Source: Nitrospirota bacterium (GTDB lineage Bacteria > Nitrospirota > UBA9217). Taken from it: a stretch of DNA of 64,000 nt. Shown one piece after another: positions 911-48,400 of the stretch. A program made the position numbers and the translations under genes. The notes under the pieces are model-generated. The model was not told where the DNA came from and ran no database searches. It was given only the letters and a program-made list of their open reading frames with translations. The DNA lies in assembly GCA_963749655.1 (NCBI GenBank), contig CAVVOB010000014.1, positions 54,199 through 118,198 of the forward strand, given 5' to 3'. Within the stretch, counting starts at the first letter, position 1, and each line of letters starts with the position of its first letter.

Positions 911-1378
911 TTATTTCGATGTTACGCCATGATCGCCCAGAATTTTCCGTATCGCGTTGCTTATGGATTTTGTCTCTGTTCCCTCAAGGATCAGGAACGT
1001 CACTCTCTTATCGCCGCGAAACATCGGCAGCGTCACGGGTTGCGTGTGAATCTGCCTGGTGGAACCTGGGTCATGGATATCTATGTAAAACCAGATCCCG
1101 TCTGCGTCAGGATTGGGAACGCCGGAAACCCATCCGCCCCGACGTTTTGGCTCATGAGTTTTGAACTCATAGGAAATGCACAACCGGGCAGCGTCTGCGT
1201 TGTCCTTCACGGAAAAATTCTGCAATTGCGGGTACCGGTCCTTCAAAGCCTCGATATCCCGTCCGATGCCGAGGATCGCGTTTTCATGCGTTTCCTGCGC
1301 TCCAGCGAAAACACCGGAAGACAACAGCAGTGCGAAAACACATGCTGTCCCGGCGAAGGTGAACCTATCTGCAGCCAT
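911..1378 (-). CDS. secreted protein of unknown function (155 aa)
   Basis: Part of ORF 911..1438. The internal ATG at 1376-1378 is preceded by AGGAGA. Signal-peptide-like N-terminus MAADRFTFAGTACVFALLLSSGVFAGA. First gene downstream of motif promoter P1. Confidence 0.6.
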   Translation of the reverse strand: MAADRFTFAGTACVFALLLSSGVFAGAQETHENAILGIGRDIEALKDRYPQLQNFSVKDNADAARLCISYEFKTHEPKRRGGWVSGVPNPDADGIWFYIDIHDPGSTRQIHTQPVTLPMFRGDKRVTFLILEGTETKSISNAIRKILGDHGVTSK

Positions 1379-1594
1379 GAAGATCTCCTGGCGAAGGCGG
1401 AGGCGAGGCACGCTTTTCGTGTCAGTCTCGACCTGCACGCTAATGGTTTAGAACATGCTGCCGGTAAGAATTGATTTCCGGTATATAGAAACCTGCCACA
1501 TCTTTTGCTGTGTCCCAGGATTTTACTTTAGAGGAGCCCGGGCCGATGCCGGGACTCCAGCCGGGTTCATAGGTGTTAACAAAACATCGCCACA

Positions 1595-1651
1595 ACTATA
1601 TGCCTGTCATAGATGCCTGTCAATAATGACAAAAGGGTATTTTTAGGGTAG
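1595..1651 (-). promoter_or_regulatory. sigma70-type promoter P1 with upstream TACCC direct repeat
   Basis: Reverse complement reads CTACCCTAAAAATACCC-N11-TTGACA-N17-TATAGT. The -10 is at 1595-1600, the -35 at 1618-1623, and the repeats at 1635-1640 and 1646-1651. Confidence 0.55.
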
Positions 1652-1875
1652 ATAATGGTATGCCGGGGACATCGAAGCATGTCTGCGGGTCGTGTCAAAA
1701 ACTGCTGTAAGCGGACAATCAGGCCGTGGCGCCGCGGCAAAAGACCCCGGTCCTGCCCAAAATCTTCTAAAATCCTTTATACTTGAAGTGAACCCTCCGC
1801 GACTGCAAGCGGAGCGCTGGTGTTCGCGAAGGGGGACGGATTTCCTCCACGGGGAACCTGCCCAAGGACACAGCC

Positions 1876-3213
1876 ATGAGCGATCAGCTGATCCGGAACC
1901 TCGATTTTCTTCACATTCTTCTGGAAGCAGTCCCCTCCTGCCTTTTTGTCATGGATTCGGACCTTCGCGTACTGCACCTGAATTCGGCTGCTGCGCGTAT
2001 GGCGGGCTCGGATCAAACAGTGTTCATGCACCGGGGCGGCGAAGTGCTGCACTGCATCCACGCTTCGGAGACGCCCGGCGGGTGCGGTCAGGCGGTGCTC
2101 TGCCGCGAGTGCCTTATCCGCAACAGCGTGCGCAAGGCTGTAACTGGAAGCCGGATACACCGCGAAACCACGAAAATGAAGTTCATCACGCCGGAGGGCG
2201 CGTCCGAAGTTCACCTCCAGATCACCTCGTCCCCCATCATGTACGAAGGAAACAGCTATGCGCTTCTCGTCATCGAAGACATCAGCGAGCTCATGAAGAT
2301 CCAGGAGGCGCTCCAGGACAGCGAGGTCAGACTGCGGAACATTTCGTCCGTGCTCGGAGAAGGGGTCTATGTCCTTGACCGGAACAATTGCCTGACCTTC
2401 ATGAATCCGGAGGCCGAGAAGCTGCTGGGCTGGACCGAAGCGGAGCTCCTGGGAAAAAAGTGCACGACGTCTTTCACCATCAGCGGGCCGACGGCACGAG
2501 CCTGCCCGCGGCCGAATGCCCGGTGCACAATACCGTCCTGACCGGCGACACATACCGCTCCGAGGACAACACGTTCCGGCACAAGAACGGAACGCTGTTC
2601 CCGGCTGCCGTTGTCGCAACGCCGCTCCTGGAGCACGGTCGGATTCTCCGGCTCCGTGACCGTGTTCCACGACATAACCGAGCGCAAGCACGCTGCCGAT
2701 CAGCTACGGCAGCTCAACGAGCTCCTCGCGCGTCAGGCGACCACCGACCCGCTTACGGGCATCGCGAACCGGCTCAAGCTCAACGACATGCTGTCCTCTG
2801 AAATTCGCCGTTCGCGGCGCTACCATCTGCCGCTCTCGCTGATCATGTTCGACATCGACCGGTTCAAACGGATCAACGACACTTACGGACACCACACGGG
2901 CGATTGCGTGCTGAAGAAAATCGCCGGCCTGGTGACGAAGATCGTACGGATCCACGACCTCTTTGCCCGCTGGGGAGGCGAGGAATTCATGATCATGGTG
3001 ACAAACTCTCCGCTGGAGAACGCCCGTCTGTTTGCTGAAAAGCTGCGGACCCGGATGGAAGAACACGCTTTCCCCGGCGTCGGCCGGGTGACCTGCAGCT
3101 TCGGCGTGGCTCAGTTCGTCTGCGACGAAACCGACGACCTGTTCACCCGGCGCGTGGACGAAGCCCTCTACCGGGCAAAGGCCCAGGGGGGAAACCGGGT
3201 CCAGACCGGGTAA
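1876..3213 (+). pseudogene. PAS-PAS-GGDEF diguanylate cyclase, reading frame broken twice
   Basis: The protein continues across three frames (ORFs 1876..2541, 2388..2801, 2611..3213). Junction 1: ...AELLGKK then VHDVFHHQRADG. Junction 2: ...LLEHGRI then GSVTVFHDITERK. C-terminal GGDEF motif is RWGGEEF. The shifts lie at the A6 run 2454-2459 and near 2648-2653. Confidence 0.8.
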
Positions 3214-3248
3214 AGTCCTGCCATCCCTTCCCCCTTCCCCAAGAACGT

Positions 3249-3276
3249 TTGACAGACTCCGTTAGAGCTATACTTT
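3249..3276 (+). promoter_or_regulatory. candidate sigma70 promoter of the repeat lipoprotein gene
   Basis: TTGACA at 3249-3254, then TACTTT 16 nt downstream (or TATACT at 14 nt), about 30 nt before the GTG start. Confidence 0.35.
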
Positions 3277-3305
3277 AAACAGGCAGAAGTTGCGGGGAGG
3301 TAAAC

Positions 3306-4415
3306 GTGAAACCAACAGGGGCGATAGGGGTGGCTATTCTTCTCTCCCTCCTCTTTATCTCGTCCTGCGGAGGGAACGGGGGCGGAAAAACGCCGGTGAT
3401 AATTGTTAACCAGCTGGCCGTGGGTGCATCTGTGCGGGACACGGTTCCGCAGGGAGGGATCAACTATTACGCCGCAGCAGTCGTACCGGGAGCGCTGTAC
3501 AAGATCAGCATCACCGAACTGATCGACGACTCCGACCTGCTCGTCTTCGGAGCCGATGCCTCCCTGTCGCACCTCGCAACCTGCTCCATCGATACGACGC
3601 GCGTTTCCGGCACGACAACGCCGGAGGATTGCGTCATCGTTGCTTCCGCCAGTATGCTCTACTTCGGCGTTGATGGCACATATCTGACGACTGCGGGAGG
3701 GACCTATACGGTCGACATCGAGCGCCCGGGCCTTACCGGCGTCAACGCCTCCATCCCTCTCGCGGACACCGCAACGAGGACCGGACTGGGAATATACGCA
3801 GCGCCGGTCGTCCCCGGCCAGTCCTATACCATAGCAGTCACCGGACTGAACGACGATGCGGACCTTCACGTCTTCGGCGCCGACGGATCGTTCATGTCCC
3901 AGGCGTCCTGCTCCAGCGCCAACACGCAGATCATCGGGACCGCGCCGGAAGACTGCACGATCACGGCCACCGGAAGCACCCTCTATTTTGTGGTCGACGG
4001 TCTGTTCAGCTCCGCCTCGACCGTGTCCTACACCGCCATCGTTGCGTCTGCGCCGTCCGTTGCCGTTCCTGCAAATCAGGGTTCTATTGTCTCGCCCTCC
4101 AGCGTAGCCGTTGATGCTCCTCTCACCACCGGACAGGTCGGCTCGGCAGGAGACAGCTTCTACATTGTGTCCGGCCTGACATCGGGAGCGCGGTACACGG
4201 TCACGATAGCAGGCCTGACAGGCACCGCCAACCTCACCCTGTTCGGTAGCGACAGTACCTTTACAACGCCTGCCGCGTGCCTGATCGACAACACCTTCCT
4301 GGCAGGCACCTCGCCCGAGGCATGCACCCTTACTACAACAGGCGCGCTGTACTTTACCGTAGCGGCAGGTCCGAACAGCTCGGCCTATGTCGTTCTTGTT
4401 TCCCCGGGGCACTGA
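3306..4415 (+). CDS. lipoprotein with three tandem ~110-aa beta-sandwich repeats (PPC-like)
   Basis: GTG start behind GGGGAGG. Lipobox LLFISSCGG. Three repeats each carry DD(S/A)DL-x-VFGAD or TANLTLFGSD, followed by PE(D/A)C and LYF motifs. Confidence 0.7.
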   Translation: MKPTGAIGVAILLSLLFISSCGGNGGGKTPVIIVNQLAVGASVRDTVPQGGINYYAAAVVPGALYKISITELIDDSDLLVFGADASLSHLATCSIDTTRVSGTTTPEDCVIVASASMLYFGVDGTYLTTAGGTYTVDIERPGLTGVNASIPLADTATRTGLGIYAAPVVPGQSYTIAVTGLNDDADLHVFGADGSFMSQASCSSANTQIIGTAPEDCTITATGSTLYFVVDGLFSSASTVSYTAIVASAPSVAVPANQGSIVSPSSVAVDAPLTTGQVGSAGDSFYIVSGLTSGARYTVTIAGLTGTANLTLFGSDSTFTTPAACLIDNTFLAGTSPEACTLTTTGALYFTVAAGPNSSAYVVLVSPGH

Positions 4416-4589
4416 CCACGACAGGCTGGAACAAAAAAGAAACTGTGGAGTTTTTTACGGTCTTTACCCCGATATCGTCCAGGTACAGGATGGGATAAAC
4501 TTCTTCAAGCGGCCGGTTCTGCTACAGCGTAATCTCCTCAGTGACTGCATCGGTGACCTGAGCGATATGAGTGGACAAACCTGCAAAGG

Positions 4590-5726
4590 CTATCCCGACT
4601 TCCCAAAAGGACATACCGGATATCTGCACACGTCGCATTTCAGGCAGAGCCCGCCATGGCCAAGCTCAGCCAACTCGCGACGTCCGATTTTTTCTCCCGC
4701 AAGGATTCGCGGCAACAGGAGATCGAAAATCGTAGTCTTTGCGTACATGCCGCAGGCCGGAAGGCCGAGAATAGGAACGTCAACAGAGGGCAGAGTGCAT
4801 GGCGCAGAGGGCATGCTCCCTATGCTCTCTGCACTATGCGCTTTGCTCAGATACCCCACCAGGACCATGGCCCCCGGCAGGACCGCCGAGCCATAGGTAA
4901 TGTCCGTTGCACCCAGCTCGCGGATCGCGAACCGCGTGACGTCATCGGGGTCCACGGACATTCCGCCCGTGGTGATCAGCAGATCGGCCCCGGCCTTCAG
5001 CAGCTCCCGCAGCCTGTCCGCGATGAACGCCCTGTCATCGGGAGCGTAGTAGACTCCGACGATTTCCCCGCCGATATCCTCCATCTTTTTCGCAATGACC
5101 GGAGCGAAGGCGTCTTTGATCCTGCCGTTGTATACCTCATTTCCCGTGATCACGACGCCGGCACGGGGCCTGCGGATTTTCTTTACTTGAATTGTTCGCC
5201 CATTCCGCACTCCGCATTCCGCATTCCGCACGGCCTCTTCTACGATGCTTTTCTTCACCACCAGCGGAATGGCCCTCGCTCCCGCGACGGTCTGGCCTTT
5301 TTTGACAAGCGTATTTGTGTGAAGCGTTGCAGCCATGACCTCGCCCAGCATATTGAATGCAAGCAGCGCGTCACCATCTATCTTGAGGAGTCCGTCGCGC
5401 TCGGCAACAATGCTGATTTTGCCTTCCTTGGGCTCGCCTTTTATCGCGACACCTTCTCCCATGAGCGCGGTCGCGAGTGCAAAGGCCGCATCGTTTTCGT
5501 GCATCTCGTCCTCGGCGACCTGAAGCACGTAGAGATGCTCCTTGCCGAGACGCTGAAGATGACAGACGTCTTCTTCTCGGATAAGATGGCCTTTCTTGAA
5601 GGCGCGCCCCTTGAATTCGCCGGGCCTGATCTCGGTTATATCATGCGCAAGGACCGTGCCGACTGCCTGCGTTACCGGAATAGTTTTTATTGTCGAGCCA
5701 TGGGCTTCATGCGTCTCGTCACACAT
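4590..5726 (-). CDS. molybdopterin-binding domain protein (MoeA/MogA-like fold)
   Basis: 378-aa ORF with the motifs VVITGNEVYNGRIKD, LLITTGGMSVDPDD and a C-terminal Cys cluster. It lies downstream of the formate dehydrogenase accessory genes. Confidence 0.6.
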   Translation of the reverse strand: MCDETHEAHGSTIKTIPVTQAVGTVLAHDITEIRPGEFKGRAFKKGHLIREEDVCHLQRLGKEHLYVLQVAEDEMHENDAAFALATALMGEGVAIKGEPKEGKISIVAERDGLLKIDGDALLAFNMLGEVMAATLHTNTLVKKGQTVAGARAIPLVVKKSIVEEAVRNAECGVRNGRTIQVKKIRRPRAGVVITGNEVYNGRIKDAFAPVIAKKMEDIGGEIVGVYYAPDDRAFIADRLRELLKAGADLLITTGGMSVDPDDVTRFAIRELGATDITYGSAVLPGAMVLVGYLSKAHSAESIGSMPSAPCTLPSVDVPILGLPACGMYAKTTIFDLLLPRILAGEKIGRRELAELGHGGLCLKCDVCRYPVCPFGKSG

Positions 5727-6988: not shown

Positions 6989-7924
6989 TTACCGGTCGAC
7001 GCAGCCTCCCGGGTGGAACATCAGGTTCGGACCGCCTCGTGTCATGCCCGCTTCATTCATCAGCATGTCCAGGGGGAGCGTGGCCAGGTCGTCCGCCATG
7101 ACTTCCATCTGCGGGTCTTTTCCCAGGTAGAGCAATTTCAGGTAGGTATGACAGTCTCCGCAGCTCTCGATCTTGACCGCGCCGTTCGAGCCTTCCAGGA
7201 TATGGTAGTCGATCCCGCTGGTGGATTCGCAGGAGCTGCATTTGAGCCGCACCATGTGCCACTGCGAGGAGCAGAGGGAGCAGGACAAATAGCGCAGGCC
7301 CTGTTCGTTCCCGCCGCCCCGCACGATGCCTACGCTCGGCTGTGAACCGCACACGGGGCACAACCCGCCTTGTTCCAGTCTGTTGAACAAATCTTCTTTT
7401 AGCAGCGATGACGCCATATGCACCCAGTAAACCTGCAGTGCTGCTGCGACGAACGGCAGTTCCTGCGGAGAAACAGCAACCATATCTCCTGCCGATATCC
7501 GGTCTGCCGTATTCTCCAACACGGCTTCACTCGCCTGCGTCAAGCCGGCTACGGTTTCCTGTGCAGCCGACGGCAGGGCAACCTCTTTCATCAGCCACAG
7601 GATTGTCGTAAACGCCGTACGCCAGGCCGGATCCCGGCTCCAGGACCGTGCAGACAAGAGCGCCGCGCCGCGCTCGCGGCAGAGCTTCCTCTCATCAGGA
7701 CCAGGCAGAGGCGTGGCGGGAAAGAGATTCAAGGCCTCCTGCTGCGCCTCGGCAAGATGCGCCAGAAAAGCCAGGTAATCCCCCAGCGGATGATCTTTGG
7801 ACAAAGATCGAAGGCGCTCGGCGCGACGGCTGAACAGATCCCGGTGCGGGAGGAAGAGATAACGGATCTCTCCCCTGGGTGTTTCCAGCTGTCCGGGCTC
7901 GATGATGCGGGCCTCAGCGTTCAC
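6989..7924 (-). CDS. fdhE: formate dehydrogenase accessory protein FdhE
   Basis: CPVCGS...LRYLSCSLCSSQWHMVRLKCSSCES...ESCGDCHTYLK matches the E. coli FdhE Cys pattern. The GTG start 7922-7924 overlaps the fdnI stop as GTGA. Confidence 0.85.
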   Translation of the reverse strand: MNAEARIIEPGQLETPRGEIRYLFLPHRDLFSRRAERLRSLSKDHPLGDYLAFLAHLAEAQQEALNLFPATPLPGPDERKLCRERGAALLSARSWSRDPAWRTAFTTILWLMKEVALPSAAQETVAGLTQASEAVLENTADRISAGDMVAVSPQELPFVAAALQVYWVHMASSLLKEDLFNRLEQGGLCPVCGSQPSVGIVRGGGNEQGLRYLSCSLCSSQWHMVRLKCSSCESTSGIDYHILEGSNGAVKIESCGDCHTYLKLLYLGKDPQMEVMADDLATLPLDMLMNEAGMTRGGPNLMFHPGGCVDR

Positions 7925-9434: not shown

Positions 9435-12400
9435 CTATGCCTTCTCGATGTTGACGAGGAAGGATTTGAACTCCGGTGTCTGCACGTTGGCATCTCCGAC
9501 GAACGGCGTCAGGGTGTTGGCGATGTAGCCGTTCTTGGCAATGCCCTTAAAACCCCAGTGGATCGGGATGCCTACATGATGAACGGTCTTGCCGTTCACC
9601 TGGAGCGACATAAGCCGCTTGGTCACCAGCGCCTTTGCCTTGACGAAGCCCCGCATGGACCACACCTTGATGAGGTCGCCGTGCTTGATGCCCTTCTCTT
9701 TGGCCAGCTCCTCGCCGATCTCCACGAACTGCTCGGGCTGCAGGATGGACGAGAGCTGCGTATGTTTCGTCCAGAAGTGGAAGTGCTCGGTCAGACGGTA
9801 CGTGGTGGCCGCATAAGGATAGTCCTTGCTCTTGCCGAGCATTTCCAGATCGTCCTTGAACACCCGCGCAGCCGGGTTGCTGATCACCTTGGGATGGAGC
9901 GGGTTCGTGTCGATGGGCGTCTCGAAAGGCTCATAATGCTCGGCGAACGGACCTTCCGCCATCTTATCCACGGCAAACAGCCTCGCCACGCCTTCGGGGT
10001 TCATGATGAAGGGGTTCATGGGATCGCCGGGCGGGACATCCGGTTTGAAGTCCGGCACGTCCACGCCGCCCCAGGCGGTCCCGTTCCAGCTGATGAGCTT
10101 CCGCTTCGGGTCCCACGGTTTCCCGGACGGGTCGTTCGAGGCGCGGTTGTACAGGATGCGCCGGTTGGCGGGCCAGGAGAACGCCCAGTTCAGCGTGTTG
10201 CCCAGGCCGGAGGGGTCCGAGTTGTCCCGCCGCGCCATCATGTTGCCCTTTTCCGTCCAGGAGCCCGAGAACAACCAGCAGCCGCAGCTGGTTGTGCCGT
10301 CGTCCCTGAGCTGGGCAAAGCCGTCCAGCTGCTGCCCCTTCTTTACGAGGACCTTTGTCTTGTCCTTGGGATCGGTTACGTCCTCCAGCGCCTTGCCGTT
10401 GTACTCCATCGCCAACTCCTCGGGCGCAGGCGAAAGCGGGATCTTATGGTTCCAGGTAAGGTTCAGGATCGGGTCGGGGAACGCGCCTCCCTCTTTTTTA
10501 TAAAGCTCGCGCAGCTTCAGGAAGATGCCGGCGATGATGTCGGCATCGACCTTTGCTTCTCCCGGAGGATTGGCGCCCTTGTAGTGCCACTGCAGCCAGC
10601 GGCCGGAGTTGGTGAGCGACCCGTTCTCTTCGGCGAAGCAGGTCGAGGGGAGCCTGAACACTTCGGTCTGGATCTTGGCTGGGTCCACGTTGTTGTGCTC
10701 GCCGTGGTTCTCCCAGAAGCACGAGGTTTCCGTTGCCAGGGGATCGATCACGACCAGGTACTTGAGCTTGGCCAGGGACCCGCCTACCTTGGCCTTGCAG
10801 GGGAAGGCTGCGAGGGGGTTAAAGCCCTGACAGAAGTAGCCGTTTACTTTCCCCTGGTTCATCAGCTCGAAGGTCTGGAGCACGTCGTATCCCTTGTCCA
10901 GCTTCGGTAGCCAGTCGAAGCACCAGTTGTTCTTTTTCGTTGCAGCATCGCCGAACCAGGCCTTCATCAGGCTGACATGGAACTTTTCGTAATTCTGCCA
11001 ATAGGACATCTGGCCTGGGCGCAGGGGCTTGAAGGCCCGTTTGCTGATATAGGTCTGGTAGTCTGTTTCTTTTTCGCCGGGAAGGGTGAGGTAGCCCGGC
11101 AAGAGGTTCGACAGGAGGCCAAGGTCAGTGAGACCCTGGATATTGGAGTGGCCCCTGAGCGCGTTCATGCCTCCGCCTGCCATGCCGATGTTGCCGAGCA
11201 GGAGCTGCATCATTGCCGCAGTGCGGATCATCTGCGAGCCCACGGAGTGTTGGGTCCAGCCCAGTGCGTACATGATGGTCAAGGTCCTGTCCGGCACCGA
11301 CGTGGTTGCGATGATTTCTGCCACCTTGAGGAAGGTTTCCTTGGGCGTGCCGCAGATATTGCTCACCGCTTCCGGCGTGTACCGGACATAGTGTTTCTTC
11401 AGCAGTTGGAACACGCATCGGGGATGTTTGAGGGTGGGGTCGACCTTTGCAAAGCCGTCAGCACCCATTTCGTACATCCAGCTTGCTTTATCATAGGACC
11501 GTTTTTCGGCGTTGTAACCGGAGAACAAGCCGTCATCGAAATGATAATCCTCGCGCACGATGAAGCTTGCGTCCGTGTAGGATTTCACGTATTCGTGCTG
11601 GATTTTGTCGCTACTGAGAAGGTAGTTGACCAGGCCGCCCAGGAAGGCGATGTCCGTGCCCGTGCGGAGGGGTGCATAAAGGTCTGCAATCGCCGCCGAA
11701 CGGGTGAAGCGGGGGTCTACTACGATGAATGTGGCTTTGTTATGGGCCTTGGCCTCGGTCACCCATTTGAAGCCGCAGGGGTGGGCCTCGGCGGCGTTCC
11801 CGCCCATGACGAGGATGACGTTGGCGTTCTTGATGTCAACCCAGTGGTTGGTCATCGCGCCGCGGCCGAACGTAGGGGCCAAACTGGCCACCGTGGGGCC
11901 GTGTCAAACTCGTGCCTGATTGTCGAAGGCCAGGATGCCGGTGCTGCGGACCGCCTTGTGGGTGATGTAGCCGGTTTCGTTGCTCGACGCGGAGGCTGCC
12001 AAAAATCCCGTGGTCAGCCAGCGGTTGACCGTGGCGCCGGCGGCGTTCTTCTTGATGAAGTTCTTGTCCCGGTCGTCTTTCATCAGGCGCGCGATCTTGC
12101 TGAAGGCTTCGTCCCAGGTTATGCGCTTCCATTCATTCGTCCCGGGGGCTCGGTATTCCGGGTATTTGAGCCGGTTCGGGCTGTGAACAAAGTCCACCAG
12201 CCCTGCGCCCTTCGGGCAGAGGGTGCCGCGGTTCACGGGATGGTCCGGGTCGCCCTCGATGTGAAAGATCGATGACTCGGCGTTCTTCGCCCTGTCCCCC
12301 ATGCTGTGCATGATCAGGCCGCAGCTCACCGAGCAGTAGGGGCAGGTATTGCGGGTCTCGGTGCTGCGGGTAAGCTTGAACTCGCGCACCTCAGCCTCCG

Positions 12401-12497
12401 CCTCGCGCGGGGAAAAGCCGAGGGCCGCAACGCTGGAAGCCCCCAGTCCTGCGGCAGAAACCTTGAAAAACTGTCTCCGTGTCACCTGCATTTTCAT
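9435..12497 (-). CDS. fdnG: selenocysteine-containing formate dehydrogenase catalytic (alpha) subunit with Tat signal
   Basis: ORFs 11904..12497 and 9435..11891 are one frame, joined by TGA at 11904-11906. The context [28 protein letters not shown] is the FdnG/FdoG selenocysteine site. Tat signal TRRQFFK. Confidence 0.9.
11868..11906 (-). other. UGA selenocysteine codon plus candidate SECIS hairpin
   Basis: UGA at 11906-11904 on the mRNA strand. Immediately 3' lies CACGGCCCCACGGUGGCCAGUUUGGCCCCUACG, which can form an apical GGCC-AGUUU-GGCC hairpin at the distance expected for a bacterial SECIS. Confidence 0.6.
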
Positions 12498-15494: not shown

Positions 15495-15550
15495 CTCCCC
15501 CAAAAATACCCTGTCGATTTTCTTGACAAAATCATCACTGTCTATATAAT
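15495..15550 (+). promoter_or_regulatory. sigma70-type promoter P2 with upstream TACCC direct repeat
   Basis: CTCCCCCAAAAATACCC (15495-15511), then N11, TTGACA (15523-15528), N16 and TATAAT (15545-15550). Confidence 0.6.
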
Positions 15551-32223: not shown

Positions 32224-32324
32224 TCCCCCAAAAATACCAGGTTGCAGTCTGATTTGAATTCCCCGCAATACCCTTAAAATACCCCATCAAGGACGTTGAC
32301 ATTTTCTCAGGCCGCGCCTATATT
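32224..32324 (+). promoter_or_regulatory. sigma70-type promoter P3 with three to four TACCC repeat copies
   Basis: Distal TTCCCCCAAAAATACCA at 32224-32239. Proximal ATACCC at 32268-32273 and 32279-32284, then N11, TTGACA (32296-32301), N17 and TATATT (32319-32324). Confidence 0.6.
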
Positions 32325-32386: not shown

Positions 32387-35300
32387 ATGACGAAGCCGAC
32401 TATTGCAAAAATCACCCGCCCGCGTCCTGCCAGATTGTTCCTGCGCAGGCGTCTCTTCCGCCAAATCGACAGGGAGCGGGACCGGCCGATCGTCTGGGTG
32501 GCCGCGCCTGCGGGATCAGGCAAGACCACGCTCGTCACGAGCTGGCTCGACGAGCGTAAAATGCCCTGTCTGTGGTACCAGGTGGACGCAGGCGACGGCG
32601 ATCTTGCCTCGTTTTTCTACTACCTGAACAAAGCCGTAAACAAAGCGGCCCCGCGTCACAGAAAAGCGCTGCCCCTCCTCACGCCGGAATACCTGCAAGC
32701 TCTCCCTCTCTTTACGAAACGCTATTTCGAAGAAGCATTCCACCGCCTCAAGTCCCCTGCCGCGGTCGTATTCGACAACTTCCAGGATGCGCCGCAGGAG
32801 TCCGGCTTTCACGAGATGCTCGCCCATGCGCTTGAATCCGTTCCCCCCGGCGTAACGGTCTTTATCCTGAGCCGTAGCAGTCCTTCCCCGCAGTTTGCGC
32901 GGCTGCAGGCAAACAACAGACTGCAGGTGCTGGGATGGGACGAAATCCGTTTTACTCTCCAAGAAACGAAGGCGTTGGTGAAAATCGGGGGGCGAACGCG
33001 CCTGTCCGGCGAATCCCTCGCCCTTCTTCATAAAAAATTCGAGGGGTGGGCAGCCGGGCTGGTACTGCTTATCGCGGGAAAAAAATTCAAAGCGCTCGGG
33101 CAAGACCTTGAAGAAAGCTTCGAACCGGCGAACGTGTTCGATTATTTCGCGAGCGAGATCTTCGAAAAGACCGATGAAACGGTCCGGTCTTTTCTCCTCA
33201 GAACCTCGTTCCTGTCCAGGATCGGAGCGGAGATTGCCGGACGTCTGACCGGCAACAACCAGGCCGCGCAGGTCCTGGACAGGCTCAGCCGCAATCATTT
33301 TTTCACCAACAAGCACCGTGACGGCGCCGCGGTGTTTTACCAATATCATCCGCTCTTCAGGGAATTCCTGCAGGCCAGGGCCGAGGCGGTTTTTCCCCCG
33401 GAGGAAATCAATGCCGTCCGCATGCACGCCGCTCTAATCATTGCTGATTCCGGGCAAACCGACGAGGCAATCGACCTCCTGCTTCTTTCCGGCCGATGGG
33501 ACGAAGCCACCAGGCTGATCCTGGCAAACGCTCAGGCGGTCACCGCGCAGGGCAGAAACAAAACTCTCGAAGGATGGCTCAGGCGGCTGCCAGCCGAGCG
33601 CGTGATGCAAGACCCATGGTTGGGTTACTGGCTTGCTCTGTGTCGGATGCTCTTCAATCCGATCGAGGCTCGCCTGCTCCTCGAAAAGGCATTTACGCAG
33701 TACAACGAACATGACGACGCCATGGGCTTGTATCTGACCTGGGCCGGGATCGTCGATACGTATTTTCTTGCCTGGAATGGGTTCAGCCCGCTTGCGGAGC
33801 GCTGGATTCCCGAGTTCGAGACGTTGTCCAAAAGACATCCCTCCTTCCCGTCGTTGGAAATGGAGGCGCGTGTGACACTCAGTTTCTTCATGGCGCTGTT
33901 CTACGCGAACCCGCAGTATTCCGATCTGCCGAAGCTGGCGAAGCGCCTCACCCAGATCATGCTCGACAGCGACACCCATTCTTTGCGATTTGCTATCGGG
34001 AGCAACCTCGTCATGTATCACGCCTGGATGGGGCCCAGTGCCGGCGCTGAGTTCATCATTGACCTTCTGCAACCGGCCGTCCGGCGCTCCGACATCGACC
34101 CGCTGGCATTGCATTACTGGTTCGGCATGACGGCGGTATATGCGTCGCTTTCCGGCGACCACGAGGCCTGTCTCGCGAGCATCGCCCGGGGCATCGCGCT
34201 CGGCGAGAAAACGGGCGTGCGTCCGTTCGAGCATACCCTCTGTGCACAGGGCGCCTTCTGCGCCATGACACAGGGGGACATGGCGGAAGCGGACCGTTTT
34301 ATTGCAAAAGTCGCAGCCATTGATTCACCCCGCAGCCTGGACAAGGCCCTTTATCATCACCTCGTCGCCCTGGCGGCATGGCATCGGGGCGATTGGAAGA
34401 GCGCGGCCGAACATGGCGAACGGGCATTGCGTTTATCCGAGAAGGACGCTTTTCCCATAACGATTGCGTTTACGCGCCTCGATCTCGCCGTCACCTGGTT
34501 CGAGATGGGGCGCATATCGGAGGCGGAGCAGGCTCTGGCGCGCGCGCTTACGGAAAGCATCGGCATTATGCGCGTGGAATTCGCCTGCCGGCTGTTCCAG
34601 TCCTGGTTTGCGTTTGAACAGGGCGATGAAGCGCGCGGTATTGCTTCGCTGCGGCAGGCGCTTGCCATCGGCGCCAAGCAGGGCTTTGTCAGCTTCTGGC
34701 GCTGGCACCCGAAGATCATGTCGCGCATCTGCGCACGGGCGTTGGAGGAGGGCATCGAGACGGACTACGTCAGGGATCTGATTCGCAGACGCAGTCTTCT
34801 TCCCGAAGGACTGCTGACGGACGGCGAACAATGGCCCTGGCCCGTGAAGATCAATACGCTCGGCCGCTTTGAGATATTCAAGGACGGGAAGCCCTTCCGC
34901 TTTTCCCGGAAGGCGCCCAAAAAGCCCATCGAGCTGCTCAAGACGCTCATTGCGTTCGGCGGACGAAACGTAAGTGAAACCAGGTTGAACGACACGCTCT
35001 GGCCCGACGCGGCCGGCGACGCGTCGCACCGGGCGTTCAATATCACCCTCATCCGTCTCAGGGAGTTGCTCGGTCTGAAGGAAGCGATCCTTCTCAGGGA
35101 CGGGTGCGTTACGCTCGACGAGCGGTATTTTTGGATCGACGTCCGGGTGTTCGAGAGCCTGCTGAATGAAGCGGTCGAAAAAGCGGAACGCGAGCGGTCC
35201 TCAGCCGTCAGGCGTTCATTCGAGAGCGGACGCCGGAGTGTGAAACCCGAACAGGGTCCCGGCTTTTTGCGCAAAGCCTTCAACATCTACAAAGGACCGT

Positions 35301-35629
35301 TTCTTCCCGATGAGAAGGGGCTGTGGGCGATATCCCTGCGCGAAAGACTGAGGGGCAAGTTTCTCGCCCTGATCGAGAAATCAGGCCGCTCCTGGGAAGA
35401 CCAAAGGAAATTTCCGAAAGCGCTCGAGTGCTACCAAAAGGGGCTCGAATGCGACGACTTGTTCGAGGAATTCTATAAACGGACCATGATCTGCTACCTG
35501 CGACTGGGCCGCAAGGCGGAAGCCGTCTCCACCTACCGCAGATGCAAAAAAACGCTCGGCGCCCACGGTCTCGACCCGTCTCTTGAAGCTGAAACAATCT
35601 ACAACAAGCTGATTTCTGAGAAAAAATAG
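32387..35629 (+). CDS. STAND-type P-loop ATPase with helical/TPR-like middle region and C-terminal SARP-type winged helix plus BTAD
   Basis: ATG 32387. Walker A APAGSGKTTLV (32510-32527 region). Walker B-like AAVVFDNFQD. C-terminus LGRFEIFKDGKPF...LLKTLIAFGGRNVSETRLNDTLWPD (OmpR/SARP wHTH), then YKGPFLPDE...YLRLGRKAEAVSTYRRCKKTLGAHGLDPSLE (BTAD). Confidence 0.8.
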   Translation: MTKPTIAKITRPRPARLFLRRRLFRQIDRERDRPIVWVAAPAGSGKTTLVTSWLDERKMPCLWYQVDAGDGDLASFFYYLNKAVNKAAPRHRKALPLLTPEYLQALPLFTKRYFEEAFHRLKSPAAVVFDNFQDAPQESGFHEMLAHALESVPPGVTVFILSRSSPSPQFARLQANNRLQVLGWDEIRFTLQETKALVKIGGRTRLSGESLALLHKKFEGWAAGLVLLIAGKKFKALGQDLEESFEPANVFDYFASEIFEKTDETVRSFLLRTSFLSRIGAEIAGRLTGNNQAAQVLDRLSRNHFFTNKHRDGAAVFYQYHPLFREFLQARAEAVFPPEEINAVRMHAALIIADSGQTDEAIDLLLLSGRWDEATRLILANAQAVTAQGRNKTLEGWLRRLPAERVMQDPWLGYWLALCRMLFNPIEARLLLEKAFTQYNEHDDAMGLYLTWAGIVDTYFLAWNGFSPLAERWIPEFETLSKRHPSFPSLEMEARVTLSFFMALFYANPQYSDLPKLAKRLTQIMLDSDTHSLRFAIGSNLVMYHAWMGPSAGAEFIIDLLQPAVRRSDIDPLALHYWFGMTAVYASLSGDHEACLASIARGIALGEKTGVRPFEHTLCAQGAFCAMTQGDMAEADRFIAKVAAIDSPRSLDKALYHHLVALAAWHRGDWKSAAEHGERALRLSEKDAFPITIAFTRLDLAVTWFEMGRISEAEQALARALTESIGIMRVEFACRLFQSWFAFEQGDEARGIASLRQALAIGAKQGFVSFWRWHPKIMSRICARALEEGIETDYVRDLIRRRSLLPEGLLTDGEQWPWPVKINTLGRFEIFKDGKPFRFSRKAPKKPIELLKTLIAFGGRNVSETRLNDTLWPDAAGDASHRAFNITLIRLRELLGLKEAILLRDGCVTLDERYFWIDVRVFESLLNEAVEKAERERSSAVRRSFESGRRSVKPEQGPGFLRKAFNIYKGPFLPDEKGLWAISLRERLRGKFLALIEKSGRSWEDQRKFPKALECYQKGLECDDLFEEFYKRTMICYLRLGRKAEAVSTYRRCKKTLGAHGLDPSLEAETIYNKLISEKK

Positions 35630-35739
35630 CCTTATCTCCAAGTCCCCCCGTCAGTTCGATTCTCCCCCAATCCGTATACGATCCGTATATTCCTCCGGGG
35701 TACACTGTGTGAAAGTTCCACTGCCTGCGGAGGAATGCC

Positions 35740-35931
35740 TTGGAAAGCTACATCGTGCGCATTTACCGGAATGCCCCGAAAAACTTGCGCGACATTGTCG
35801 GCGTCGTGGAAATTGTTGGCGCTGAAGAAAAAAAGGGATTTACGAACATAGACGAGTTGTGGGGCATCATCAACCCGCGCAAAAAAGGAAGACGCCGGGT
35901 GAAGACCGGGCGCGGAAAACCGAGGAGGTGA
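35740..35931 (+). CDS. small protein with a strongly basic tail (63 aa)
   Basis: TTG start 5 nt after GGAGGA. ESYIVRIYRNAPKNLRDIVGVVEIVGAEEKKGFTNIDELWGII, followed by KKGRRRVKTGRGKPRR. Confidence 0.5.
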   Translation: MESYIVRIYRNAPKNLRDIVGVVEIVGAEEKKGFTNIDELWGIINPRKKGRRRVKTGRGKPRR

Positions 35932-42240: not shown

Positions 42241-42297
42241 ATACCCCAAAAATACCCCGCCTAGGCCATTGACAGGAATTCCATATTACTATATTAA
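42241..42297 (+). promoter_or_regulatory. sigma70-type promoter P4 with upstream TACCC direct repeat
   Basis: ATACCCCAAAAATACCC (42241-42257), then N11, TTGACA (42269-42274), N17 and TATTAA (42292-42297). TATATT at N15 is an alternative -10. Confidence 0.6.
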
Positions 42298-42469
42298 TGC
42301 TTCATCGTAACGCGACATGTCTGAACTGACCCCCTCCGTTTGGACAGTCGTATGCCCTAATCTCTCTGAGTCCAATTATCCTAGAAAAAAAGAAACAATA
42401 CGTGTGGACTTTTTAGGGAGCTGTATTTACGGCGGGTCAATATTATGGCTGCGCCTCAGGAGGATGAAA

Positions 42470-45400
42470 ATGAGTTTACGTCTATTTTCAGTCACGCGTA
42501 TTTTTCTTTTTTCCGTCTTTATAACCGCGGCAGCTGCCTCGCCGGCGCTCTCTTTTGATACGGTCAAAGTAGTGCAAGCAGACGGATTCTTCACATTCCT
42601 GAATGCCAGGCAAATCGTCCGGACATCCTCAGGAAGAATCTACTATTTCACTGGAAGCGGAGCTGGAACGGGTCGCAGCGGATGGATTATGGTGAATACC
42701 TCGGTTGATGGCCAGACGTGGAATCTGCTTGAAAATCATTCATCATGGTATGAGCCTTCCGGCGTCGGTGTCGGCGTGGACAGTCGAAATATCATACATA
42801 TGATAGCGTTTGACGGAACCAAAATACCTTATTACCAGAAATACAACACATTGGACAGCCCCAAGGGCGACGGTTCCTGGGAACCGGTTGAACCACTGGA
42901 GAGTACTGCTGCTCTCTACGGCGCCTGGCAATGCGCTCTCGCATTGGATGCGAACGATGTCCCGCATGTCGTATATCAGTTGTCTGAAAGATACAAGGGA
43001 GAGTATAGAGGGGTCGTCTATTATGCAAACAAGGTCGGCGGAACATGGCATAAGACTGCGATTTGGCCGAAAGAGATTGGCAGCTTTGTGGACAGCGCCA
43101 CCATCGCCGTGGGGCCGGACAATATTCCTTATGTTCTCATGGGTACAAAGATCCTGAAAGGAAACGCGAACGACCCGACCGTTTTCGAATCTCAAGATCT
43201 CGGAGGCGGCAATTCTTTCGTGATCCACCAGAACGGAGATGTCAGAGTGGCATTGACGTTGAATGGTAACTATGCCAATTATCTTCACGACAACACGCAG
43301 GCGTGGACTTCAGGGTGGACAATGTCCGATTCCGGATCCCCGGACGCAGGCGGGCCGCTGATTCTGGTTGACGACGTTCCCTATGAAATAGAACTTCTCA
43401 GCGACGGCATCTGGCTGCGGAAGGAATTCGAAGCTCCTTTTCTTTTTTCAGCGAGAACAGGATATTCTAACTGGTGGAGCGTGACCACGAGATGGAGCTT
43501 CTATAATCACTATGACCCCGGAATGATTGATATCGGAACTCTTGGTCAGGACTCCTATAACTTGGGTTATTTCTATTTGTATGCGAACAATGTCCAGGTT
43601 ACGCCTCCCGATCCCCCTCCGGTGCCGACGGTGATTGATTTCAGCGGAGCCCCCTTGAAGTGGGTTACACCGGTCTATGCTGTATTCGCGGATAAGTCGA
43701 CTTTTCCGGCCGGCAGAACCGCTGTCTCTTGGGCATGGGACTTTGAAAACGATGGGACTGTGGATTCCACAGTGCAGAATCCCACGCACGTCTATACGAC
43801 ACCCGGAACCTATTCCGTCAAGCTGACGGTAACCGATTCGAGTGGAGAGGTGAACTCGAAGGTGAAGGCCGACTATATCGTGGTCGAGACAGATACAGAC
43901 GGTGACCGCTACGGCGATTCGCAGGACAATTGCCCGACCGTTTACAATCCCGATCAGTCTGACATGGACAACGACGGTATCGGCGACGCCTGCGATCAAA
44001 ACCAGGACCTCGTGAAACAAGCGGTTTACCGCACCGGGCTCAAGAAGGAGACTGCGAGCGAGGGTGCCGGAACCGACGTTGCCGCGATCATGATAGACGG
44101 GCTGTACACTGTCGCGAAGCGAATTCAGAAATCCACGGCAGGATACGACATACTGAGCTTCCGGTCCGATCTGGAGTCATCTCGTCTTGCCCAGTGCAAG
44201 ATAAAGCTTTATGTAAACGCCCTCTACAACAATGCTCCCCAGACGGTCCATGTTTATGCATACGCATCTGATGGTCTCGCGGTCCAGACGGGCACGGTGC
44301 TTAATTTCACTCTTTCCCCGGGCTGGAATACCCTAGATTTGAAGTCCCTTCTGGCGTCTATGGATGGTTTCGGCTTCATGAAATTCCGCGTTGCAGCGCC
44401 GGCGAACTGGATCGATATTTCGGAAGGGTCGATAGCGGCCGCGTATAGAGACACATGGGAAATGTCCGTTTCGCCCACGAGCATTGACTTCGGGAGCATC
44501 GAAACTGTCGGCTCCCAGGCGCGCAGGGTCATCGTGAAAAACGTCGGTACGGGGGACCTCATCGTCGGATCCTTTCCATCGCTGGCGGCGCCTTTTTACC
44601 TCAAGTCTGATGAGTGTTCGGGCATGACGCTCGGATCGGGTTTATCGTGCAAGGTATTCGTCAAGTTCGCGCCCACATCGAACGGAACGTACACGGCTTC
44701 CTTGACCGTTACTTCGAATGATGCCGATCATCCGGAGATCGGGATTTCGCTGACAGGGACGGCGGTCAGCGGATCCGGCATTACGGGCACGGTCGCGGAC
44801 GCATCCACAGGCCTCCCCCTGTCCCAGGCCGATATCACTTTCACGATGAAAAGACCGGGAAGTTCGAATCCGGATGACTACTATTACATGTATGGTAACG
44901 CGGTGTCCGCCATTGATCCGGACACTGATCTGGGGTTGTCTTTCACCGCAACGGAGGCCGGCGCTGTTCAGAAAAATGATGAGAGCAAGGTCGTCATCGA
45001 TGGCTCGTTGCTGCTTAAATTCAGAAATCCCTACAACGTCTCCGACCGGGTGAAGTTGACCTGGAACGGACTGGGGGGATATCATGCCAGCGAGGTAACG
45101 GGCCAGAGCTTTGTGTCGGGCATGACGGGAACGCTCACCAAGGTAAGTATTCCTCTCCTACGTAATTTCAGCGTCGACTCCCTGACCGGTACGGTCGTCC
45201 TCTATCTCAAGTCCGCCCTAGGCGCGGAGCAGTCCGCGATCCTCGCGGCAAGCGACCCCGTCGATGTCAACGAACTGTCTGACAGCGTTCCCGCGTGGTT
45301 CGACTTCACGTTCTCAACACCCGCACGCGTTACGAGCGGACAACCTTATTACCTGGAGTTGTACGATACAGGCAGGTACTGGGGAACGGGCAGCGCTTTT

Positions 45401-48400
45401 GATTACGCCAAAGTCTCCTGGCCCTATGCCTATCCCAGTCCCTACCGGAACGGGCGGGGCTACATTCGAACGGACGGACTGTGGAACACGACCTACGGGT
45501 CCATGACCGATTGGTCCTTTGCCTTCAAAACGTATGTCGATTTCCAGCTCGATCAGGATCAAGCATCGTTCTGCTGCCAGGATATGTACGTCCAGGGGGT
45601 GGAAGGGCAGGAGTATGTACTGGCAAGATTCAACCGGCCTGCGGCAGGATGGGAATGGGCTGCATGGACCAATTCGGCAAACGGTTATGATGATACGACC
45701 TTGGAAACAACGTTGAGCGGGAACATGGGGAACTATTATAACGTAGACGGGTGGATCTCTGCGCGTGTGTACAACTACCAACCTTACATCTCAGGATCGA
45801 TATATACACCGTATCTTGCAACTGATCAATTCAGCGTCGAATTCGAAGGAGACAGGACGGTCCGCACAGACGGCGCAGGAGCTTTTTCCCTGTCATCCCT
45901 GCCGAGCGGGACCTACTCGGCCGTCGTGTCTGCACCAGGCTACGCTCCGCAGACGGTAAGCGGCACCCTGGTCCCGGGCCAGACCCAGGTCCTGAGCGTG
46001 AGGCTCACTCCCAATCCGCAGCTCCTGCTCGAGATCACCTCTCCGGCCAACGGAGCCATGCTAAGCGGGACCTTCGTCCAGGTGACGGGCAGGGTGACCA
46101 ATGACGCGTCCGTTACCGTGAATGGCACAGCGGCTTCCGTGTCGAATGGATCATTTGCGGTGGTTATCTATCCCGTCGACGGACAGAATACGATCACGGT
46201 CAATGCCCTGGATCAGTACGGCCAGACGGCAACGCAGACCCTGACCATAACGTGCAGCACCACGTCGAGGATGCTCCTGAACTACACGCTGCTCGATTTC
46301 GGCAAGATAACGAGCGGAACCACGAGCACTCGCGACATAACGGTAGAGAACAACAGTACAACCGCACTCTCCCTCGGCACGGTATCCCGGCCGGCTGATC
46401 CTTTCTGGGTCATCGCAGACACCTGCTCCGGTAAGCTCATTTCTCCGGCCGCAACCTGTACAATCAGCGTTGAGTTTGCCCCCACTTCGGATGGAACCTG
46501 GTACGGGACCCTCACCATTCCGTCAAACGACAGCAACCAGCTTCCCGTGAGCGTAGCTCTGCAGGGGGAAGGGGCGGCTTTTAGCGGCTACTATCTGCCT
46601 GACACGGGCGAACAGAACAATTACCACACCATGAATCCCATGGCCTTTGTCACGACTGCGGTCTCGGCATCTGACAGGAACACGGGGCTCACGTGGCAGC
46701 GGCAGGACGATGCTTCACTCAGGATCTGGACCGAGGCCCAGGGCTACTGCGACAACATGGTCCTGGATGGCTTCGACGACTGGAGGCTTCCTACTGCCCT
46801 TGAACTGACCACGATCGTTGATTACGGAAAGACGGGAACAGTCATCGATGGACAGGTCTTTCCGAATGCTCATGCTGCGGACTATTGGACCGTCATTTCC
46901 CAGACCGATACTGCCTGGGCAGTGAACTTCAGCCTGGGCACCGGGTCCGCGATCTCGTCGTCATCCAAAGCCTATACCCGCTGTGTCCGCGGCACGCGGC
47001 TGTCCCAAGGGTACTTCGAGAACTATGGCAACGGCATAAGGCAAGACAGTTATTCCGGGCTCATGTGGCTCGAGACCTACTTGACCGCGGGAGACAATTC
47101 GATTTCAACGGCACTGAGCACCTGCGACGCCGTCACCTACGGCGAATATTCGGACTGGCGTCTTCCGAATATCAAGGAACTCATCTCCAACACCTATACG
47201 GCCTGCTATCTCAACGATTGTGCCAACTGGTCCTCAACGACGGTGCAGGCGGATACCAACAAGGGCTATACGTATAACGGCTTTGCAGGGACGGACAACA
47301 AAAGCGCTTCGCATGTTTTCCGGTGCGTGCGCGGAGGGAACGTTCGGCCCGCGGATGAACAGGCCCTTGCCCTCACCCCCGCGGTTGCCGACTTCGGGTC
47401 TATTGAGACCGGTTCGGCTGGGTCAGTAAGTGTTACCCTGACGAACAAGGGAACAGCCTCGCTCGTCATCGGTTCGCTTTCTGCGCCAGTATCACCATTC
47501 ACGATGATGTCCGACGGATGCTCAGGTCGCATGCTCGCTGCGAACGGATTCTGTTCGTTCACGCTGGGCTTTGCTCCCACTGTAGCCGGCGTCGTTTCAG
47601 CGACTGTTACCGTACCGTCAAACGACACAGACAATCCGTCAGAGGCCTATTCTTTGATCGGTACCGGCACTTCGCCCAATGCCGTTCTCCAGGGCACGAT
47701 CACAGACGCCCGAACGGGGGCTGCCGTGGACTCTGCGCTCCTTTCCCTGACCGACGGACATTCGACGGTCCATTCTGCAACAACATTATCAAATGGAACT
47801 TTCTCCCTGGGGAGCATTGCCGCAGGAGCATATACCGGCAGCGTATCAAAAGATGGATATGCCCAGTACACCTTCTCGGGAATTATGGCTTCCGGCCAGA
47901 CAGTCGTGATGAACATGCTGTTAACGCCGCTCCCGCCGGTCATAAGCAGCGTCGTTGCGAGCAACCCGACTACTACTTCCGTTGTCATCACCTGGACCAC
48001 GGACAAGGCTGCGAACAGCACTGTGGATTACGGCACAACGACTGAATACGGAAGTACGGTGACTGATACGGCTTACGTCACGAGCCACAGTGTTGCAATA
48101 TCCGGCCTGACACCGTCAACAGCCTACCACTTCAGGGTCACCTCAACCGAGCTGAGCGGCCTCACAACCACGTCGACGGACAACACCTTCTCGACCTTGA
48201 ACCCGATTTCTATTACAATACAAACACCCCAGAACAATGGCACAATATCCCGGCCCGATGTCATGGTGACGGGAACCATAACGAACAGCACCGGAAATGA
48301 GACTGGGATCACGGTGAACGGCATGGTAGCGACAATGGAAGGAAATCAATTCATCATAAACCACGTGCCATTGACCGAGGGCGCGAATACCATATCCGTC

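Follow-up and report, generated by a model that had tools for sequence, protein, structure and literature searches.

How does an ATPase of the MalT type work as a transcriptional regulator when it ends in a SARP-type DNA-binding module, and which site and gene does it serve? Such a protein is encoded at 32387-35629 (+) in the DNA analyzed here, a stretch of 64,000 nucleotides (nt) of contig CAVVOB010000014.1 (positions 54,199 to 118,198) from a Nitrospirota bacterium, referred to below as the window. Judging from sequence comparisons, we consider it probable that this STAND-SARP regulator is a one-component, nucleotide-gated activator built on the MalT plan with a SARP effector, which would use a predicted operator at 35669-35690, beyond the end of its own gene, to switch on the small gene that follows.

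Domain architecture of the regulator

The regulator gene (32387..35629, +) is an uninterrupted open reading frame (ORF) closed by a TAG stop at 35627-35629. The same frame opens further upstream, at TTG 32357; homologues start at ATG 32387 (MTKPTIAKITRPR), which gives a protein of 1080 amino acids (aa). Besides the ORF and its homologues, the assignment draws on domain profiles and on an AlphaFold2 model that was built on 46 sequences and has a mean predicted local distance difference test score (pLDDT) of 87.9. In the model an alpha/beta NTPase is followed by helical and winged-helix subdomains and then by helical repeats that run unbroken from about residue 338 to 801.

The initial annotation, made from the sequence alone, had described the N-terminus as a P-loop NTPase of the MalT/LAL type, and profile and structure comparisons bear this out. 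Residues 8-428 match the NCBIfam model of MalT (E 9.6e-63) and residues 8-418 match the solved nucleotide-binding oligomerisation domain (NOD) of MalT, PDB entry 8bob (E 2.9e-31). The NOD proper, consisting of the nucleotide-binding domain, a helical domain and a winged helix, occupies residues 8-335 (32408..33391, +), and the winged helix that closes it, WHD_MalT (PF25873), is annotated on the regulator and on all of its 120 best relatives. A YQYHPLFREFL motif of the regulator also aligns to MalT. The best NOD matches are MalT, and NB-ARC (PF00931) is not among the regulator's Pfam matches at E<=1. Sequence and homologues place the Walker A motif APAGSGKT at residues 40-47 (A40-T47, with GSGKT; 32504-32527, +) and the Walker B motif VVFDN at 32762-32779 (+; VVFD130-N131). 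Both are intact, and G43, G45, K46 and D130 are invariant among 46 homologues.

The NOD is followed by an all-helical arm and TPR-like sensor region at residues 338-801 (33398..34789, +), delimited by the AlphaFold2 secondary structure and by matches to TPR_2, TPR_12 and TPR_16; TPR_MalT reaches 23.8 bits, under its cut-off of 45. This region had been put at about 550 aa of TPR-like character. Its all-helical nature stands, and its length is about 465 aa, the larger figure being reached only by counting the helical and winged-helix parts of the NOD.

After residue 801 the model continues with a four-stranded sheet, three helices, a beta-hairpin wing (901-910) and a helical bundle. The model, Foldseek and a family profile delimit an OmpR/SARP-type winged helix-turn-helix (wHTH) at residues 816-917 (34832..35137, +), whose recognition helix is placed by the model at residues 877-895 (GDASHRAFNITLIRLRELL; 35015-35071, +). 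The BTAD domain follows at residues 918-1077 (35138..35617, +), so that the SARP module takes up residues 816-1077 of 1080 and is C-terminal, as had been claimed at the outset. BTAD is clear in Pfam (E 6.4e-14, residues 953-1074). Trans_reg_C is sub-threshold on the regulator alone (E 0.059), yet it is found in nine of 14 family members (best 1e-5), all 14 of which have BTAD. A profile made from the 14 C-terminal modules matches the whole SARP module of AfsR (AfsR 45-283, E 1e-15) and also EmbR (E 2.7e-7). When the model of the regulator was searched with Foldseek, MalT ranked first, and the tail compared with the AfsR SARP module gave a TM score of 0.67-0.68. In Pfam, the regulator has no GerE/LuxR match at E<=1 and no Response_reg match.

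This architecture is not rare. A protein search with the regulator returned 4668 matches at E<=0.001; the best 120 are 40-76% identical over 88-100% of the query, about 1050-1100 aa long, and all carry BTAD and WHD_MalT, so that the order of domains is no oddity of a single gene and is shared by more than 120 full-length relatives. These come from Nitrospirota, Geobacteraceae, 'Deltaproteobacteria' metagenome-assembled genomes (MAGs) and sediment metagenomes, under machine-made names such as 'BTAD domain-containing putative transcriptional regulator', 'DNA-binding SARP family transcriptional activator' and 'MalT/SARP'. No characterised member of this NOD-sensor-SARP architecture was found in the literature searched. 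One Nitrospirota genome has three adjacent STAND-SARP paralogues (L074, 623-13258), one of them split into NOD and BTAD pieces.

Predicted operator and small-protein partner

The regulator gene is followed by a 63-aa ORF with a TTG start (35740..35931, +), which had already been noticed as a small, basic-tailed ORF and is real: a ribosome-binding site, GGAGGA (35729..35734, +), lies 5 nt 5' of the TTG, and the ORF recurs as a conserved partner at family loci. The protein reads MESYIVRIYR...VGVVE.VG...F.NIDELW.I.NPRKK with a basic tail, and we refer to its relatives as the YIVRIYR family. Between the two genes lie 110 nt that are 89% identical between the window and its closest locus (L004, 86% DNA identity), compared with 76% identity of the regulator orthologues; the other loci that were fetched are not near-identical to the window.

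Within this spacer, starting 40 nt after the regulator stop, is a 22-bp site made of two direct-repeat units of 11 bp, AATCCGTATAC and GATCCGTATAT (35669..35690, +). It is the only such repeat site in the 64-kb window, and we take it to be the likely operator of the regulator, a prediction drawn from a block conserved in five loci and from repeats found family-wide. The five loci are the window, L004, L001, L079 and L080, which share the recognition helix HR(A/S)FNITLIRLR while their regulators are otherwise 42-76% identical. In their alignment (A4), the sole invariant non-coding block is CAATCCGTATAC-ATC-GTATATTC together with a -10-like TA(A/C)ACT ten bases on. The predicted -10 hexamer of the window is TACACT (35701..35706, +), 10 nt past the repeat, and it agrees with the family consensus G-n-T-A-n-n-n-T. 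No sigma-70 promoter or -35 hexamer was called at the small ORF's promoter. With the predicted -10 set at -12 to -7, the repeat would span about -44 to -23 of this promoter.

The same arrangement recurs across the family. A metagenome scan with the C-terminal profile added 80 further loci, on short metagenomic contigs; together with the earlier loci, 86 have at least 120 nt after the regulator stop. In 58 of these 86, a tandem repeat nATC[CT]GTnnnn with a period of 11 occurs within 600 nt downstream of the stop, compared with 0.6% of shuffled sequence and none of 87 controls inside the coding region. The downstream target space (48 kb) holds 55 repeat sites and the remaining ~950 kb only 40, several of which are sites of the same type lying 1-2.4 kb downstream of a regulator or divergent from one. 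When 53 distinct loci were aligned on the repeat, they showed a T-rich tract, the two units and, exactly 10 nt later, G-n-T-A-n-n-n-T (A 96%, T 77%, T 71%, G 69%), with no -35 consensus. SARPs use operators whose direct repeats have a period of 11 bp, overlapping the -35 region and stopping about 8 nt short of the -10 (PMC10972967, PMC11301090), and the predicted geometry of repeat and -10 matches this arrangement.

Among paralogues, no tandem repeat was found downstream of P0104 (L074) and L040, and P0008 (L075) has a related downstream repeat, ATCTGTA. At several loci, two or three predicted operators of one type are found within 2.4 kb, or a divergent one lies upstream (L103, L108, L109, L127 with sites at +27, +2037 and +2365 from the stop, L089 and L131), so that some regulons can reach beyond the adjacent gene.

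A YIVRIYR-family ORF follows the regulator at all five loci sharing the window's helix and at 36 of the 80 metagenome loci, and it is present at 38 of the 58 loci that bear the repeat. The small ORF is thus a conserved partner of the regulator and probably its direct target. Its family is large: a profile search of 1.84 billion representatives gave 1984 clusters at E<=0.001 and 468 at E<=1e-10 (proteins P0121-P0277). The small protein itself has no Pfam family and no PADLOC match. Its AlphaFold2 model, of moderate confidence (pLDDT 66.5), consists of three strands and a helix, and a Foldseek comparison of the model with the PDB gave nothing below E 0.6. Some family members carry a C-terminal PilZ domain, and in two such cases (L161, L162) the gene is preceded by ATCTGTGAC tandem repeats, L162 having four units. 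The contigs of another relative, P0127, show neither an adjacent regulator nor a tandem repeat; the pairing of regulator and small ORF is therefore not universal.

The three to four bases after ATCYGT vary among loci, and they follow the recognition helix. In statistics that ignore shared ancestry, the residue before the invariant RLR (I889 in the window) and the first base after GT share 1.17 bits of mutual information, a value reached in none of 2000 permutations. When each of 45 distinct helix types is counted once, arginine or lysine at this position goes with C (6/7, against 1/38 with other residues; p 6e-6), serine with G (4/6 against 2/39; p 0.0014), and histidine, isoleucine, leucine or phenylalanine with A (28/30 against 1/15; p 1e-8). 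Within the arginine/lysine class, and likewise within the serine class, there are helix types unlike one another at several further positions. The two bases beyond the first one co-vary with helix positions 1, 4 and 5. This co-variation is our main ground for attributing the repeat to the regulator itself and not to a different factor.

The co-variation is also what speaks most directly to the possibility that the repeat is a promoter element of the YIVRIYR gene family, read by some other factor such as the small protein or an OmpR-family response regulator, while the STAND-SARP protein acts elsewhere and their adjacency is a matter of synteny. Against this, the variable repeat bases track the regulator's own recognition helix over 45 helix types. 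Repeats are also found before other genes beside regulators that have no small ORF, and the small protein has no recognisable DNA-binding fold. Some members of the small-protein family do fit such a reading, since those of L077 and L078 have no visible STAND-SARP neighbour and PilZ-fused members on short contigs have repeats where no regulator is visible. On balance we regard it as unlikely.

If the regulator is the reader, its action can be pictured by analogy with better known systems. In AfsR, the NOD and TPR parts inhibit the SARP module and ATP binding relieves the inhibition (PMC10936776), and BTAD is an activation domain that contacts RNA polymerase (PMC10936776, PMC11301090). At rest, the SARP module of the present regulator would be kept in check by its NOD and sensor, as in MalT and AfsR, and the module would be released by an inducer on the sensor and ATP on the NOD. 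Two SARP modules may then bind next to each other on the same DNA face, one on each repeat unit, as AfsR does on the afs box. There, the winged helix and BTAD would contact sigma region 4, the beta flap and the alpha C-terminal domain, as described for AfsR (PMC10936776, PMC11301090), replacing the missing -35 contact and recruiting RNA polymerase to turn on the 63-aa YIVRIYR-family gene. The output would be transcription of the small protein, which could serve as an effector or as a feedback partner of the sensor. Transcription of the regulator itself would start from a separate, near-consensus sigma-70 promoter with a Nitrospirota-wide TACCC element.

The same site could be imagined to work in the opposite direction, with the regulator blocking RNA polymerase over the -35 region until a signal releases it. 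Its span of about -44 to -23 could suit a repressor too, and GSU1771, a receiver-SARP of Geobacter, is a largely negative regulator in mutant transcriptomes (PMC10599522). Against this, a conserved extended -10 in a promoter lacking the -35 hexamer is a mark of activator-dependent promoters, MalT-type STAND proteins are activators, and BTAD contacts RNA polymerase as the activation domain of AfsR (PMC10936776, PMC11301090). Repression therefore seems to us an improbable use of the site, and activation by the regulator is the reading that we retain.

Several observations nevertheless weigh against activation from this operator. The capacity of the site to serve a repressor is one of them, and the disregard of ancestry in the co-variation statistics is another. 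The pairing of glutamine with T rests on one clade. Searches with a profile of the wHTH alone and with a single sequence, meant to place the co-varying residue among the base contacts of AfsR, did not retrieve AfsR. The gap between repeat and -10 is 10-11 nt, compared with the 8 nt quoted for SARPs, the 11-bp register being arbitrary within a few bases. Thresholds for detecting the repeat were chosen after the first examples had been seen, and under the criteria used 28 of the 86 loci lack it. At 20 of the repeat-bearing loci the small ORF is missing, and there the next gene is of another type, often encoding a secreted protein, or the contig ends. Finally, the second Walker B residue (D130-N131, 32774-32779) is Asn in nearly the whole family and Asp in MalT; since it is neither Asp nor Glu, ATP hydrolysis may be weak or absent. 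In MalT and AfsR it is ATP binding rather than fast hydrolysis that matters (PMC10936776), and the family-wide Asp-Asn pair suggests that the same could hold here.

The TACCC element and other features

The regulator gene has its own sigma-70-type promoter, TTGACA and TATATT separated by 17 nt (32296..32324, +; hexamers at 32296 and 32319), with 11 of 12 consensus matches. A perfect TACCC-N6-TACCC pair (32269..32284, +; half-sites at 32269 and 32280) lies 11 nt 5' of the -35 hexamer, and a degenerate pair, TCCCC-N6-TACCA (32224..32239, +; 32224 and 32235), lies further upstream in the promoter region. The initial annotation had pointed to this elaborate TACCC repeat promoter, and it is indeed there. 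The implied link between the element and the regulator is another matter.

If the regulator bound TACCC-N6-TACCC, it would regulate its own gene and also control the window's giant adhesin-like protein and its secreted proteins of the PKD/Ig-like kind. The spacing invites the idea, as the element has the 11-bp period expected for tandem winged-helix binding and is present twice upstream of the regulator gene, once as a perfect pair and once in degenerate form. The 64 kb contain five promoters that are built alike, each with TACCC-N6-TACCC, 11 nt, TTGACA, 17 nt and a TATAAT-like hexamer; a pattern scan places their pairs at 1635-1650 (-) and at 15496-15511, 32269-32284, 42242-42257 and 52532-52547 (+). 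With at most one mismatch, the pair pattern has 7 matches compared with 1.26 expected. The window genes behind these promoters encode Ig-like, PKD and adhesin-like surface proteins. Three STAND-SARP genes, those of the window, L040 and L100, are preceded by the element.

The wider distribution of the element does not favor the idea. A 20-base version of the pattern, scanned for exact matches across a collection of species-representative genomes, gave 69 matches (loci L005-L073) where about one was expected, and 64 of the 69 fall in Nitrospirota MAGs, a single genome having as many as six. The genes behind them are diverse and include CheY-like receivers, lipoproteins and PAS sensors; cyclic diguanylate (c-di-GMP)-I riboswitch leaders also follow such promoters (L020, L023, L046). 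The pair stands upstream of a consensus -35 hexamer and does not take its place. Each of the three TACCC-bearing STAND-SARP genes has a different recognition helix, and the four regulators that share the helix of the window (L004, L001, L079, L080) have no TACCC upstream. Furthermore, TACCC is unlike the family core ATCYGT, and it is another repeat, conserved and co-varying with the helix, that adjoins the regulator gene. We conclude that TACCC is a lineage-wide promoter element of Nitrospirota, presumably read by some other factor, because it occurs across the phylum before unrelated genes, is absent upstream of the other same-helix regulators and goes with differing helices. The genome-wide scan, the downstream genes, the orthologous loci and the comparison of recognition helices led us to reject it as the regulator's operator, and we consider binding of TACCC by the regulator very unlikely.

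Other observations were made on TACCC promoters. The adhesin-like protein directly behind one of them (42317-49033, +) has 2238 aa, with Lcl_C, HYDIN/VesB-like Ig, PKD, CarboxypepD_reg, fn3 and TSP_3 domains. In L040, the gene behind a perfect TACCC promoter (1277-5008) is a distant STAND-SARP paralogue, 25% identical and with a different recognition helix; its contig is binned as Betaproteobacteria and may be misbinned Nitrospirota DNA. In L080, whose regulator shares the recognition helix of the window, a TACCC promoter (7255-7287) separates the small ORF from a second, downstream ORF of 56 aa; TACCC and repeat-type promoters therefore coexist in one lineage at different places. By eye, sigma-54-like TGGCA-N-TTGC boxes were spotted about 60-90 nt downstream of TACCC promoters in L009, L021, L051 and L057, which suggests dual promoters in which such boxes accompany the sigma-70/TACCC type.

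That the regulator is an Avs/bNACHT-like STAND protein of anti-phage defence whose effector binds DNA is the least plausible reading and was rejected. STAND NTPases with TPR sensors are indeed common in defence systems and PADLOC gives two weak 'TPR protein' matches at residues 819-917 (E 1.3e-4 and 2.8e-3), but the NTPase has no PADLOC match, the NOD is of the MalT type, the effector is a complete transcription-activation module, a predicted cognate promoter adjoins the gene and the neighbours are not defence genes.

Elsewhere in the window, a SECIS_3 element (11851-11909, -; 81 bits) lies inside a molybdopterin oxidoreductase that appears split into the ORFs 9435-11891 and 11904-12497 (-). 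The two ORFs most likely form one selenocysteine-containing enzyme, read through a TGA codon.

Relation to known regulators

MalT-type STAND regulators are known with LuxR-type effectors. With MalT itself the regulator shares the N-terminal NOD (residues 8-428, corresponding to MalT 6-430) including WHD_MalT, the order of NOD, arm, putative helical-repeat sensor and C-terminal DNA-binding effector, and presumably the release of autoinhibition by binding of inducer and ATP. Apart from the Walker B residue discussed above, MalT differs in its C-terminal LuxR/GerE helix-turn-helix, where the regulator has an OmpR-type winged helix and BTAD, and in its arrays of MalT boxes, whereas for the regulator just one pair of 11-bp repeats, placed over the -35 region, is predicted as the target. 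The regulator is not a member of the MalT/LAL group because it has no LuxR helix-turn-helix.

On the output side, the literature regards the SARP module as an N-terminal domain that belongs to antibiotic regulators of actinobacteria (PMC10972967). In the SARP-LAL regulators of Streptomyces (PimR, SanG, FilR), the SARP part comes first and the LAL part follows (PMC10972967). These proteins also combine a SARP module with a LAL-type ATP-binding region in one polypeptide, and their targets are direct repeats with 10-11-bp periodicity (PMC10972967), but the order is the reverse of that in the regulator. They are actinobacterial and situated in the clusters of antibiotic pathways, whereas the family described here belongs to Nitrospirota, Geobacteraceae and other anaerobes and has a small unnamed protein as its partner. 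In AfsR, the SARP part comes first, followed by NB-ARC and then TPR (PMC10936776, PMC11301090). AfsR and other large SARPs resemble the regulator in the structure of the SARP module and in being STAND proteins with a TPR-like sensor, and the afs box resembles the predicted operator in having two repeats on one DNA face, overlapping the -35 and close to the -10. AfsR has an NB-ARC NOD in place of the MalT-clade NOD, its domain order is inverted, and it is linked to serine/threonine kinases and antibiotic clusters, for which there is no counterpart here. With its SARP module not N-terminal and its NOD not of the NB-ARC kind, the regulator is therefore neither a SARP nor an AfsR-type large SARP.

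A C-terminal SARP module has a precedent in GSU1771 of Geobacter sulfurreducens, which consists of receiver, wHTH and BTAD and places the SARP module after its signal-input domain (PMC10599522). Regulators of this COG3947-type 'SAPR' group share that order with the regulator and likewise come from a non-actinobacterial anaerobe. Their input is a phospho-receiver of about 120 aa, compared with 800 aa of STAND NTPase and sensor here, and the regulator is not of the GSU1771 type because it has no receiver domain. The initial statement that the domain order is unlike that of characterised families thus agrees with these comparisons: the SARP module is N-terminal in AfsR-type and SARP-LAL proteins, and MalT ends in a LuxR helix-turn-helix. 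By analogy, the regulator most likely works like MalT on its input side and like AfsR on its output side.

The regulator represents a large non-actinobacterial family whose members place a SARP effector under the control of a MalT chassis. Surprise at this is limited because the architecture is already visible in databases. New are the predicted operator, the target gene assigned to it and an apparent recognition code, all of which are directly testable. An anonymous class of proteins of about 1,000 aa, abundant in Nitrospirota and Geobacteraceae, thereby gains a concrete predicted site and target gene, and two regulatory layers that had been merged before, the Nitrospirota-wide TACCC element and the regulator's own predicted operator, are now separated. 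Because each regulator adjoins its own predicted operator, the family also offers a natural series of helix and operator pairs that could reveal how SARP/OmpR-type winged helices read DNA, as a recognition code open to testing by single substitutions, as well as a lead on about 2,000 clusters of unannotated small proteins, some of them PilZ-fused.

More tentatively, and with somewhat less than even confidence, the regulator, its co-varying repeat promoter and the YIVRIYR small protein, in some cases with a c-di-GMP-binding PilZ domain, may together make up a signalling cassette of three parts that is widespread in anaerobic sediment bacteria and has gone undescribed. Such a cassette would have a readable amino-acid-to-base code, in which the residue before RLR sets the base after ATCYGT, and the small protein would be its output or feedback partner. 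If this is true, the family would be a natural set of orthogonal, reprogrammable activator/promoter pairs.

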